DNA of 20,943 nucleotides, from assembly GCA_965649215.1 (NCBI GenBank), contig CBFGJZ010000017.1, forward strand, positions 1-20,943. Reading direction: 5' to 3'. Source of the DNA: a candidate division WOR-3 bacterium (GTDB lineage: Bacteria; Hydrothermota; Tepidihabitantia; Tepidihabitantales; CAIPLT01). Position numbers and translations under genes: made by a program. The notes under the pieces are model-generated. The model saw only the letters and a program-made list of their open reading frames with translations, had not been told where the DNA came from and searched no databases. Positions 4,061-15,599 of the stretch are shown here, in pieces; position 1 is the first letter of the stretch; each line of letters begins with the position of its first letter.

Positions 4061-5020
4061 ATGATAAAAAAAATAAGCACTGTACTTATGATTTTAGTGT
4101 TTATGAACTTACTCCAAGCACAGAGCCCAACTGATTTAATCCAACGGATTGGTGAGCAGGTTTTAACTGGTTATACTAGACCCTTAGTGAGCGCATTCGG
4201 TTCTGCATTGAATACAGGTCTTTTCCATACTGCTAATTCACATAAACCCGGTGGTTTTGATTTACAGTTAAAAGCGATGTATATACCAATTCCTGAAGAT
4301 GGCAAAACCTTTCAATATCGCGTGCCGGGTTTATATGTTAACACATCGACCATGACTGTTGATACTTTCTGGTTTAGTGGTTCTGCTAGTACGGTTTTTG
4401 GTCCTGAAGATTCTACTATCGTTTATCAGGGCCAAGATACAGTCGCAATTCCATCGGTTCTGCCAGGAGGGACAGGGATTTCGTTCTTTCCATTTATAAT
4501 GCCGCAATTGAGCGTGGGCGTATATTACGGCTCAGAAATTTTAATACGATTTATTCCCAGTTTTACAATTCCGGGTTTAGATGAAAAAGTTAGTTTTTGG
4601 GGAGTTGGAATAAAAGAAGATATAACTGAACTGCCGTTTGATTTTCTACAAAATCTACCGGTTGATATTGCCTTGCAAGGTGTTTACCAAAATCTTAAAG
4701 TTGGTGATATTATTACTTCTTCAGCATTGAATTTTAATCTCCAAGCAAGTAAGACTTTTTCAGTGATTACTCCTTATTTGGGTTTAGGTTGGGAAGATGC
4801 CAAGCTGAATTTTAATTATGATTTTACTTATGATGAATTACAGCCGAATGGCCAAGTCCAACCGCGAACAGTAAATATTAATTTTGATGTGCCTGCCGAT
4901 AATAAGATACGATTAGTAGCTGGTTTTAGTTTGAATTTAGGACCGGTTTTATTTAACGCAGCATATAATCTTTCAAAATATAGCGCAATTAGTGCCGGTC
5001 TGGGACTTTCGATAAGATAA
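4061..5020 (+). CDS. Secreted / outer-membrane beta-barrel protein (DUF6588-like)
   Basis: Sec signal peptide (MIKKIST...LLQA-Q), alternating hydrophobic beta-strand pattern, C-terminal AISAGLGLSIR strand. The family name is from recollection, not a search. Confidence 0.7.
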   Translation: MIKKISTVLMILVFMNLLQAQSPTDLIQRIGEQVLTGYTRPLVSAFGSALNTGLFHTANSHKPGGFDLQLKAMYIPIPEDGKTFQYRVPGLYVNTSTMTVDTFWFSGSASTVFGPEDSTIVYQGQDTVAIPSVLPGGTGISFFPFIMPQLSVGVYYGSEILIRFIPSFTIPGLDEKVSFWGVGIKEDITELPFDFLQNLPVDIALQGVYQNLKVGDIITSSALNFNLQASKTFSVITPYLGLGWEDAKLNFNYDFTYDELQPNGQVQPRTVNINFDVPADNKIRLVAGFSLNLGPVLFNAAYNLSKYSAISAGLGLSIR

Positions 5021-5070
5021 AAGTAGGCTGTAAAGGTTAGATAGATAATCTTTAAGTTGTAATTGAGATA

Positions 5071-5099
5071 TTGACAATTTATGAGGGTTGTTGTAAAAT
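5071..5099 (+). promoter_or_regulatory. Strong sigma70 promoter with no adjacent ORF (upstream of structured element)
   Basis: TTGACA (5071-5076), 17 nt, TAAAAT (5094-5099). Confidence 0.75.
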
Positions 5100-5152
5100 A
5101 TAAATGTAAGATGAGATAATCTTATAACAATTTAGTTGGTCAATAAGTTTTT

Positions 5153-5297
5153 AGGAATTAGGGAAAGGTGTTCTCAGACACCCACCCTAAAAGCATCTTA
5201 ACCTCCTTCATCGCTATTCAGACCCCGAATAGCGATGTAATGCAAACCTCCTTTCAAGCTGTCTGAGAACTTGACCCCACTTTCCCTAATTCCTTTT
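5153..5297 (+). ncRNA. Putative structured non-coding RNA (rod with internal bubble; sRNA or 6S-like)
   Basis: Three nested perfect stems: 5153-5167/5280-5294 (15 bp), 5170-5180/5260-5270 (11 bp), 5209-5219/5227-5237 (11 bp). Ends in a short T run. GC-rich relative to its flanks. Upstream consensus promoter. Strand is inferred from the promoter. Confidence 0.65.
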
Positions 5298-5334
5298 AAG
5301 TTTCAATGAGTTCTCAATTAGATAATTTTCTGTC

Positions 5335-5363
5335 TTGTCAGAATTGTTTAGTTGCTTTATTAT
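5335..5363 (+). promoter_or_regulatory. Putative promoter of the Mut7-C gene
   Basis: TTGTCA (5335-5340), 17 nt, TATTAT (5358-5363); 11 nt to ATG. Confidence 0.5.
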
Positions 5364-5374
5364 TATGATGGGTT

Positions 5375-5845
5375 ATGGCAATTAGATTTTTGGTTGATTT
5401 TATGCTGGGTAAATTGGCTCGGGAATTGCGAATGCTAGGTTTTGATACTGTCTACCTCAACAACGAAGATATTACGAATCAGTCAATCTTTTCCCTTCTT
5501 AATCGAGCAAAACAAGAAGGTCGAATATTATTGACTCGTAATCATAAATTGATCGGCTATGCTGAGATATTTTTTATTAAGAGCGAAAAGGTTAGTGCTC
5601 AAGTAAAAGAAGTTTTAGAAGGTTTTAAGTTATATTCAGCCCTAAAACCTTTTAGTAGGTGTTTACGATGTAATGAGTTGTTAATGGTCGTAAAAAAAAC
5701 AGAAGTTAAAGGTAAAGTGCCGTTTTATATTTATCAAACCAAAGAAGAATTTGCTTACTGTTCAAAATGTGATAAGTTCTATTGGCGCGGTAGTCATTTA
5801 AAAAATATGCAAGAACGCTTGAAAGAGATTTTAGAGAATAGTTAA
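5375..5845 (+). CDS. Mut7-C RNase domain protein (PIN fold with Zn ribbon)
   Basis: RFLVDFMLGKLARELRMLGFD, RILLTR, SRCLRCN and CSKCDKFYWRGSH motifs. Confidence 0.9.
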   Translation: MAIRFLVDFMLGKLARELRMLGFDTVYLNNEDITNQSIFSLLNRAKQEGRILLTRNHKLIGYAEIFFIKSEKVSAQVKEVLEGFKLYSALKPFSRCLRCNELLMVVKKTEVKGKVPFYIYQTKEEFAYCSKCDKFYWRGSHLKNMQERLKEILENS

Positions 5846-6613
5846 TTAATATGTCTTTAGAACTGCTTTGAGTTCTTGCTGGGGGTTTAAATAAATTTTC
5901 TTACCATTAACTTCTTGCCATAATTCTAAATGGAGATGCGGGGCAGTTGACTTTCCTGAAATGCCGACATAACCAATGATATCACCCGCTTTGACCGTTT
6001 CGTTTGTTTGCTTAATAAATTTGTAGAGATGTCCATAAAAGGCTTTGTAATTATCTCCTAAATCTAAGATGATATAATTACCATAAAAGGTATCCGTGCC
6101 AACTTCACTAATTTTACCAGCACCAACTGCATAGACAGGCATTCCTAATTGAGTGGCTAAATCCAGCGCTTCATGATTTTTTGAATAACCCCGAGAAATT
6201 ACATAACCCGTGGTTGGGGCAGCTTGAAAGCGACGATTACTCAGCAATATTTCTGGTTCTGAATAAGGGCGGTATTCGTCTTGTAAGTCTTGAAGCGAAA
6301 ATGGAGGCGGATTTTTATCTGCTCCTAACATTAATGCAATTTTACTTTTCTCGGCTTCTAAATAATTGAGTCGGTTTTCTAATTCCGCAATTTTTTTATT
6401 TTCTTGTTCCAGTTGAAAATTTCGTTCCATCAAATAATGAAGAGTTAGATTTTGCTGATTGGTATAATGAAGCAAAAAAATTCCTAATCCACCTAATAAA
6501 ATAAAGAAGATAAGGCCAATGATAATTAAACGAAATTGCCATAAGCTTAAACGCCGTTGGAAAGTTTTTGGTTTGTATAAAGCGGTGATGATAATTTCAA
6601 TCTCTTTTTTCAT
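5846..6613 (-). CDS. M23 family metallopeptidase (TM + coiled coil + M23)
   Basis: N-terminal TM helix, coiled coil, HEALD (HxxxD), YGHL and GKSTAPHLHLE. Confidence 0.92.
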   Translation of the reverse strand: MKKEIEIIITALYKPKTFQRRLSLWQFRLIIIGLIFFILLGGLGIFLLHYTNQQNLTLHYLMERNFQLEQENKKIAELENRLNYLEAEKSKIALMLGADKNPPPFSLQDLQDEYRPYSEPEILLSNRRFQAAPTTGYVISRGYSKNHEALDLATQLGMPVYAVGAGKISEVGTDTFYGNYIILDLGDNYKAFYGHLYKFIKQTNETVKAGDIIGYVGISGKSTAPHLHLELWQEVNGKKIYLNPQQELKAVLKTY

Positions 6614-12430: not shown

Positions 12431-15445
<3,015 letters not shown>

Positions 15446-15481
15446 TGCCTGCCATTTCTAATAGTGAATATGGTTAATTAT

Positions 15482-15599
15482 ACCCGGTGGCAATACCGGA
15501 GGGGCAACACCTCTTCCCATACCGAACAGAGTCGTTAAGCCCTCCAGGGCCAATGGTACTGTGCTGGTAACGGTACGGGAGAGTAGGTCGTCACCGGGT
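15482..15599 (+). rRNA. rrf: 5S ribosomal RNA
   Basis: Terminal helix ACCCGGTG/CACCGGGT, CCCATACCGAAC, GAGAGTAGGTCG; followed by a T run. Confidence 0.96.

Follow-up and report, generated by a model that had tools for sequence, protein, structure and literature searches.

The small RNA (sRNA) RoxS/RsaE carries several C-rich, G-free single-stranded regions that are aimed at Shine-Dalgarno (SD) regions. In streptococci, all cia-dependent small RNAs (csRNAs) hold sequences able to pair with a ribosome-binding site (RBS) and AUG (PMC4507080). The alpha-r14 ("cuckoo") sRNAs of alpha-proteobacteria, for instance NfeR1 of Sinorhizobium meliloti, keep an ultraconserved anti-SD motif unpaired while their stems vary; they are built of three hairpins, each with CCUCCUCCC in its loop, and silence several mRNAs at the RBS in an Hfq-independent manner (PMC10746234). 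Here we describe an element in a contig of a candidate division WOR-3 bacterium (CBFGJZ010000017.1, positions 1 to 20,943; this whole stretch is called the window). By comparative sequence evidence it is a strand-defined sRNA gene of an uncultured order, running from promoter to terminator. It represents a newly defined sRNA family of a known regulatory kind, the hallmark of which is a frozen 13-nt complement of a whole RBS.

The unit spans positions 5071-5298 of the forward (+) strand from promoter to T-run, and the predicted RNA is ~190 nt long in the source genome (G000), with a structured core of 142 nt. An earlier note on this DNA had described the promoter at 5071-5099, three nested stems of 15, 11 and 11 bp and a series of C-rich motifs, all of which lie exactly where it placed them; Table 1 gives the coordinates. 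Homologs were found in 44 of the 66 genomes of the order, namely in 10/10 genomes of family f1, to which G000 belongs, in 4/4 of f4 and 30/44 of f2, with 0/6 in f5 and 0/2 in f3. The same note had taken the element for an undescribed sRNA, and this has held up: helices 1 and 2 and the CCUCC motif are kept in the 44 homologs, and no Rfam family matches the element.

Covariation supports the fold. In the alignment of the ten f1 sequences, 350 of 350 cells in the helices are paired, including all of the 13 modelled pairs of stem 1, and 10 pairs are compensatory (4/11 in stem 2 and 4/11 in stem 3); slid controls pair in 35-48% of the cells. Compared with 500 shuffles, the f1 values were reached by 0-1 of them on four of five measures, and by all 500 on the fifth, the count of further pair types. 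In f2 and f4 together, helices 1 and 2 show compensatory changes at 24 of 24 pairs (13/13 in stem 1 and 11/11 in stem 2) and 96% of the cells pair, in an alignment that was fitted to the model and includes two spurious rows. The sequences of the stems are completely different between f1, f2 and f4. The hairpin of stem 3 is different in f2 and missing in f4, which has one open loop of ~50-57 nt instead; the inner hairpin is thus dispensable.

The ends of the unit are conserved as well. A promoter with at least 10 of 12 matches to TTGACA/TATAAT lies within ~100 nt upstream in 41/44 homologs, compared to 1/44 on the opposite strand, and a T-run of at least four follows the closing helix in 37/44, compared to 6/44 on the opposite strand. 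A promoter scan of the AT-rich stretch alone was at chance level (4 sites, 3.2 expected), and we accept the promoter because of its conservation among the homologs; the site at 5071-5099 aligns within f1. The earlier note had seen no open reading frame (ORF) behind this promoter, which is borne out: the only ORF of at least 30 aa before the next gene (5375) is a 32-aa frame on the + strand starting with GTG (5168-5266), and we rejected it as coding, since gaps of 1, 2 and 3 nt in the aligned f1 sequences disrupt it.

The + strand folds with a minimum free energy (MFE) of -60.3 kcal/mol (z = -6.5), which none of 200 shuffles attained, and the minus strand folds with -68.7 kcal/mol (z = -5.9). 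Because all 37 stem pairs of G000 are Watson-Crick pairs, both strands fold equally well, so that a single sequence can settle neither the strand nor whether the element acts as RNA or as a DNA palindrome. One might therefore suppose that the minus strand is the functional one, as a leader with a perfect RBS (AAGGAGGTTAAGATG, reading SD, 5 nt and ATG) and a tiny ORF, or that the element is a palindrome or a miniature inverted-repeat transposable element. The relatives leave this next to no probability. The frame that follows the ATG is 2 to more than 15 codons long and unrelated between genomes, promoters and T-runs sit on the + strand, and 14 cells of the f1 alignment are G-U pairs on the + strand that would be A-C mismatches on the other, among them those in the compensatory pairs of stem 3. 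Moreover, the element occurs once in G000 (1.64 Mb, 95% complete) and is thus not a repeat element.

The only block that is invariant across f1, f2 and f4 is the 13-mer CAUCUYAACCUCC (5194-5206) on the 5' side of the large loop, found in 44/44 homologs, with Y standing for U in the f1 sequences and for C in those of f2 and f4. The 13-mer exactly complements GGAGG-UURAG-AUG, a core SD followed by a 5-nt spacer and a start codon, and its perfect target site is GGAGGUUAAGAUG. The mean predicted probability of being unpaired is 0.83 for the 13-mer and 0.92 for its part AACCUCC, compared to 0.44 for the whole RNA. Throughout f1 the letters of 5181-5208 are unchanged, and of the unpaired internal positions of the 44 homologs 43% are C and 5% are G. 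Further C-rich motifs are found in every case in the 3' half of the loop and in the asymmetric internal loop, the latter position being C-rich in all RNA-bearing families. The single variable letter of the 13-mer would face the middle letter of a UAA/UGA triplet in the spacer of a target, which we regard as a lead only.

According to the earlier note, the RNA displays two anti-SD motifs and mimics the tail of the 16S rRNA. Both motifs are indeed present, and the first is conserved and predicted to be unpaired in the 44 homologs, but the second is limited to f1; in its place f2 and f4 have CCCACC, CCCCACC or CCUCCCC. This second motif, ACCUCCUUUC, matches 10 nt of the 3' tail of 16S rRNA, GGAUCACCUCCUUUCU, letter for letter (six 16S genes of five relatives, the tail being canonical in all five; the 16S gene of G000 itself ends at a contig end before the tail). 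The likeness to the tail stands for this motif, but the part that never varies is the longer 13-mer, which also covers spacer and AUG.

We read the element as a trans-acting, Hfq-independent anti-RBS sRNA of the kind of alpha-r14/NfeR1, the csRNAs and RoxS, and give this reading about an even chance; pairing with mRNA, repression and Hfq independence are what we infer. Several traits of a trans-encoded sRNA in general are found here, with an own promoter and a terminator-like end, a position other than that of a fixed-gene leader, and a conserved single-stranded seed. Transcription would start at the near-consensus sigma-70 promoter and end at the long closing helix with its U-run, and the two conserved helices would form a scaffold that holds open the large, G-poor and C-rich loop. 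The working part would be the single-stranded CAUCUYAACCUCC, aided by the further C-rich motifs and, in f1, by the second anti-SD. Pairing of the 13-mer with G-rich initiation regions, i.e., with the SD GGAGG and, where the sequence fits, also with spacer and AUG, would keep the 30S subunit off the mRNA and lower the translation of selected messages.

In its working logic the RNA matches alpha-r14/NfeR1, with which it shares a frozen unpaired anti-SD, freely varying stems and redundant C-rich seeds; RBS occlusion is shown for NfeR1 and predicted here, and NfeR1 works independently of Hfq, which was not found in G000. In contrast to alpha-r14, the RNA has CCUCCUU twice and no CCUCCUCCC, and it consists of one large loop on two nested helices instead of three hairpins; its 13-mer extends over the spacer and the start codon as well. 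The RNA comes from a different phylum and has no sequence or Rfam relation to alpha-r14. The csRNAs likewise have an unpaired stretch complementary to RBS and AUG and are of a similar size range (87-151 nt), but they occur as several sibling copies driven by CiaR in Firmicutes, whereas here there is one copy with a consensus sigma-70 promoter and no Rfam match. The likeness to the csRNAs is a common working principle, with no evidence of descent. RoxS/RsaE is similarly conserved over a wide group, but its motifs (CCCC or UCCC) and its fold differ, and no RsaE match was obtained. Altogether, an Rfam scan with E-values up to 10 revealed no sequence or fold relation of this RNA to alpha-r14, the csRNAs or RoxS/RsaE.

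Several results weigh against pairing with particular mRNAs. A whole-genome scan for targets, performed in G000 only, gave no conserved target mRNA; G000 has no other site with at most one mismatch to the 14-nt target motif (the complement of the 13-mer plus one base), and no match to the complement of the 13-mer when G-U pairs are allowed. In each of the ten f1 genomes the 13-mer occurs only within the RNA itself, and the perfectly complementary RBSs of other genomes head unrelated genes. In a scan of duplex energies, start regions could not be told apart from internal controls (first percentile -17.4 vs. -17.0 kcal/mol; 10,916 start-region and 2,390 control energies, some of the control values being failed folds). 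The best SD-led candidate was an 85-aa gene (C5:52840), the RBS of which is two mismatches away from the 14-nt motif. It keeps GGAGG in 28/30 orthologs, 4-6 nt before the ATG and with or without the RNA in the genome, but the spacer varies freely, and we rejected the gene for want of specific co-conservation. In addition, the invariance of all 13 letters exceeds what a typical multi-target seed needs, and it also fits recognition by a protein.

The longest k-mer match in the target search was to AAAAGCAUCUUAAC, with 14 complementary nt at the beginning of a gene for 384 aa (C13:17518), the N-terminus of which resembles, by eye, a clamp-loader subunit; since the upstream part of the match is not conserved in the RNA, we treated it as chance.

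The letters of the 13-mer are found in 176 of the 272 genomes of the phylum. Inspection of 100 pattern matches outside the order revealed that most are the antisense of real gene starts (53 of the later 60 by an ORF criterion, and more than half of the earlier 40 by eye) and a few lie inside coding sequence; matches within the order that are not part of the RNA are likewise mostly antisense of gene starts. Genes with an exactly complementary RBS thus exist in the phylum, but are mutually unrelated. GGAGGUURAGAUG accounts for 276 of 40,756 GGAGG-N5-ATG sites (0.68%, including the 44 antisense copies of the RNA genes themselves), compared to 0.2% expected for a uniform spacer. We considered it as a special class of RBS and rejected this, as the sites, although about three times as frequent as expected, head unrelated genes.

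In RNA-bearing genomes, perfectly complementary RBSs make up 13 of 5504 GGAGG-N5-ATG sites, and the remaining genomes of the phylum have 219 of 35208 (naive Fisher test, p = 1.5e-4, relatedness ignored). Within f2 alone, the numbers were 12/4307 and 8/1815 (p = 0.33), and an avoidance of such RBSs in genomes that have the RNA is only a weak hint. The AT-rich family f5 (G013, G017, G020, G023, G025, and G027), which is without the RNA, has the complementary RBS GGAGGTTRAGATG at 10 of 563 sites (1.8%), which exceeds every other share observed; for the ten f1 genomes the number is 0/672.

In G000, GGAG/GAGG has its maximum at positions -13 to -8 relative to the first start codon (356 vs. 15 at control sites), and an SD of this type precedes 21-29% of 1292 ORFs compared to 5% of controls; the full GGAGG is present in 7-10% of ORFs. 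The context is usually AAAGGAGGU. The earlier note had suspected many leaderless genes. SD-led genes are indeed a minority, if a real one, but the lack of an SD does not mean that a gene is leaderless.

The main rival to the anti-RBS sRNA is a decoy, in which the C-rich strand would titrate an RNA-binding protein or a factor contacting the 3' tail of 16S rRNA and would act like CsrB or 6S RNA; proteins of the KH, S1, and cold-shock types, which bind C-rich RNA, are candidates. We hold it to be unlikely, even if it deserves the most attention among the alternatives. A decoy would explain the full invariance of the motif, with 13 letters unchanged in 44 homologs and no conserved complementary RNA found; the strong near-consensus promoter is as expected of an abundant RNA, and in f1 the second motif copies the 16S tail. 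However, this copy is missing outside f1, and no candidate protein co-occurs with the RNA: the neighbors differ between families, and a gene for a Mut7-C RNase is present in 62/66 genomes irrespective of the RNA. GGA motifs for CsrA are absent, and no CsrA match over the cut-off was found in G000. A further reading, which we consider a long shot, makes the RNA a general mimic of the initiating 30S subunit, in which a single strand joins CCUCC, as anti-SD, to CAU, the triplet of the initiator anticodon, with the canonical spacing of 5 nt. The low share of perfectly complementary RBSs in RNA-bearing genomes is a weak hint that would be in keeping with it.

The earlier note had also offered a divergent 6S RNA, as the geometry of a closing stem followed by a central bubble and a terminal stem would be compatible. 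Such an RNA would serve as a decoy for RNA polymerase. The RNA resembles 6S RNA (RF00013) in its long closing helix, large internal bubble and abundant-looking stand-alone gene, and the overall shape alone would fit. Nevertheless, a canonical 6S RNA is encoded elsewhere in G000 (G000:C6:49525-49699; 61.1 bits, over the Rfam cut-off), and no 6S-family match was obtained in 4950-5450 at E-values up to 10. The terminal hairpin, furthermore, is wholly absent in f4 and not homologous in f2, and the bubble is C-rich and G-poor, which is not promoter-like and appears suited to displaying a C-rich seed. We therefore rule out the 6S alternative, the probability of which we see as close to nil. At gathering scores, Rfam found only the 23S and 5S rRNAs in the window and nothing at the element; at E-values up to 10, the region 4950-5450 gave six chance-level matches, the best with E = 1.4, all far below gathering scores and none of them of the 6S, RsaE, Y_RNA or csRNA type. 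The RNA of the signal recognition particle of G000 was located on contig C12.

The homologs were collected in several steps. BLAST detected the element in all nine other f1 genomes at 76-92% identity, and with a covariance model based on the f1 sequences, weaker matches over the full length were obtained in f4 and f2; the total of 44 was reached by a search for the 13-mer followed by unfiltered model scoring of the matches. The weakest five homologs (E = 0.02-0.18) rest on the model together with the shared 13-mer, and three of them (L089, L090, and L091) were checked by eye. The RNA is present in a single copy per genome. A phylum-wide model search scored few candidates per genome and missed the known members in G028, G031, G016, and G019, so that it is weak on absence. 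In a wider collection, an f1-specific pattern matched five loci, of which three were f1 members. The other two were discarded as unrelated; one is the antisense of an RBS and one a tandem-repeat array (L097, with ~23-nt units that carry TTAACCTCC-like letters after the pattern match). Among sequencing runs, a search with 4600-5900 of the window listed no RNA run, and six DNA runs with a share of at most 0.17 each. A search of full-text literature, in which the lineage name was not included, found no report of this RNA.

A 20-mer, CCCCACUCAUCUUAACCUCC, is common to two non-coding loci on different scaffolds in other families of the class, L107 (G228:C45, ~17235) and L184 (G224:C7, ~131661). L107 combines a consensus promoter with a 5' stretch rich in C and a strong terminator hairpin, and L184 comes after the end of a gene. 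It may be that the seed predates the scaffold of the present family.

The genes next to the RNA vary by family. In f1 a DUF6588 gene lies upstream (4061-5020 in the window, E = 2.7e-57) and a Mut7-C RNase gene downstream, in f4 a GltD-like gene upstream and RtcA, in convergent orientation, downstream, and in f2 an RtcA or TPR gene upstream and a convergent PdxA downstream; in genus g3 of f1, as in f2 and f4, the gene that follows the RNA is convergent to it. The RNA is thus a stand-alone unit and not the leader of a fixed gene. Among five gene starts inspected in the window, a strong SD (GGAGGAG) precedes that of the DUF6588 gene alone.

The arrangement in f1 raises the question of a cis link to the Mut7-C gene, for which the RNA would be the 5' leader or an RNA partner or antitoxin, in an order of promoter, RNA, terminator and nuclease gene like that of a type III toxin-antitoxin system. 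The RNase gene follows on the same strand in 7/10 f1 genomes, and in genus g2 its ATG comes only 14-18 nt after stem 1 (L027 in G002 and L028 in G006), leaving no room for a separate promoter upstream; co-transcription of the two is for this reason likely in g2. The link is nonetheless quite improbable for the family. In g3 of f1, f4, and f2 an unrelated convergent gene follows the RNA, with the Mut7-C gene elsewhere, e.g., 11 kb to 250 kb off on the same contig; the gene is also found in f5 and f3, which are without the RNA, and among the 66 genomes examined no phyletic link between RNA and Mut7-C was found. The Mut7-C gene of G000 has a promoter-like site of its own in front (5335-5363). A type III antitoxin is also at odds with the lack of tandem repeats, the pair of 9-nt AACCTCCTT copies (5200 and 5245) being the sole direct repeat in the unit. 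In G002, the 3' internal loop of the RNA contains TTGACC, followed after 17 nt by TATTAT. This could be an internal promoter giving a nearly leaderless Mut7-C mRNA; otherwise the gene would depend on read-through from the RNA.

The adjacency of RtcA, an RNA 3'-phosphate cyclase, suggests a structured RNA that is Y-RNA-like or otherwise linked to Rtc and works with RNA-repair proteins. RtcA adjoins the RNA in f4 (two loci scanned, convergent) and lies upstream on the same strand in genus g6 of f2 (one locus scanned, with like-sized ORFs at three more), the adjacency being seen at L034, L039, L040 and like loci. We rate this idea as very improbable, as inherited gene order and a local inversion can account for the adjacency, RtcA is on another contig in G000, no TROVE/Ro protein (PF05731) was found in the 95% complete G000, and the Rfam scan gave no Y_RNA match.

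The features of the unit are collected in Table 1. Transcription is predicted to start near 5106, and the leader extends up to stem 1; the distance from the end of the -10 element to stem 1 is ~45-59 nt in f1 (20 nt in G005) and 9-32 nt in f2. Outside the unit, a 9-nt perfect inverted repeat (TAATTGAGA at 5060-5068 and TCTCAATTA at 5312-5320) flanks promoter and RNA, and may be due to chance.

Table 1. Features of the sRNA unit, in positions of the window.
Feature	Position	Strand	Remark
Sigma-70-type promoter, -35 TTGACA, 17-nt spacer, -10 TAAAAT	5071..5099	+	11/12 consensus positions
Possible second, weaker promoter TTGTAA-18-GATAAT, TG before -10	5091..5120	+	9/12
Small 5' leader hairpin	5105..5126	+	in MFE and centroid folds
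Stem 1, 5' arm (15 bp with 5280-5294)	5153..5167	+	perfect inverted repeat; 13 modelled pairs
Stem 2, 5' arm (11 bp with 5260-5270)	5170..5180	+	perfect inverted repeat
Large loop, 5' half: CCCACCC (5181-5187) and first anti-SD motif AACCTCCTT (5200-5208)	5181..5208	+	
Invariant 13-mer CATCTTAACCTCC	5194..5206	+	reverse complement of GGAGG-TTAAG-ATG
Stem 3, 5209-5219/5227-5237 (11 bp), 7-nt loop AGACCCC (5220-5226)	5209..5237	+	
Large loop, 3' half, second anti-SD motif AACCTCCTTTC (5245-5255)	5238..5259	+	
Stem 2, 3' arm	5260..5270	+	pairs with 5170-5180
Asymmetric C-rich internal loop TTGACCCCA, holds GACCCC (5273-5278)	5271..5279	+	
Stem 1, 3' arm (5280-5294), then TTTT, terminator-like end	5280..5298	+	

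Elsewhere in the window, the 23S and 5S rRNA genes (12431-15599) are not preceded by a 16S gene, which instead lies ~20 kb downstream on the same strand and contig (G000:C17:35243-36654) and ends at model position 1387 at the contig end; the rRNA genes are thus unlinked. The 23S match is 3017 nt long compared to the 2925 positions of the model, with several insertions, and no tRNA gene is present in the window.

To our knowledge, regulatory RNAs of uncultured candidate lineages are almost unknown. The family described here is defined well enough for an RNA family entry, with 44 sequences, two covarying helices, strand, promoter and terminator. Its 13-letter core is unusual in that it mirrors a complete RBS and not the SD alone, and in that it has remained the same although everything else in the molecule has changed. 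It offers a precise handle on translation control in bacteria that use an SD on a minority of their genes. If the general mimicry of the 30S subunit should prove wrong, the RNA would be one more independent invention of an anti-SD small RNA. If it should prove true, an abundant decoy would clamp whole RBSs and set the translation of the SD-led minority (~1/4 of the genes) as a class; this would parallel, for translation initiation, the role of 6S RNA at promoters, and would add a new global layer of control.

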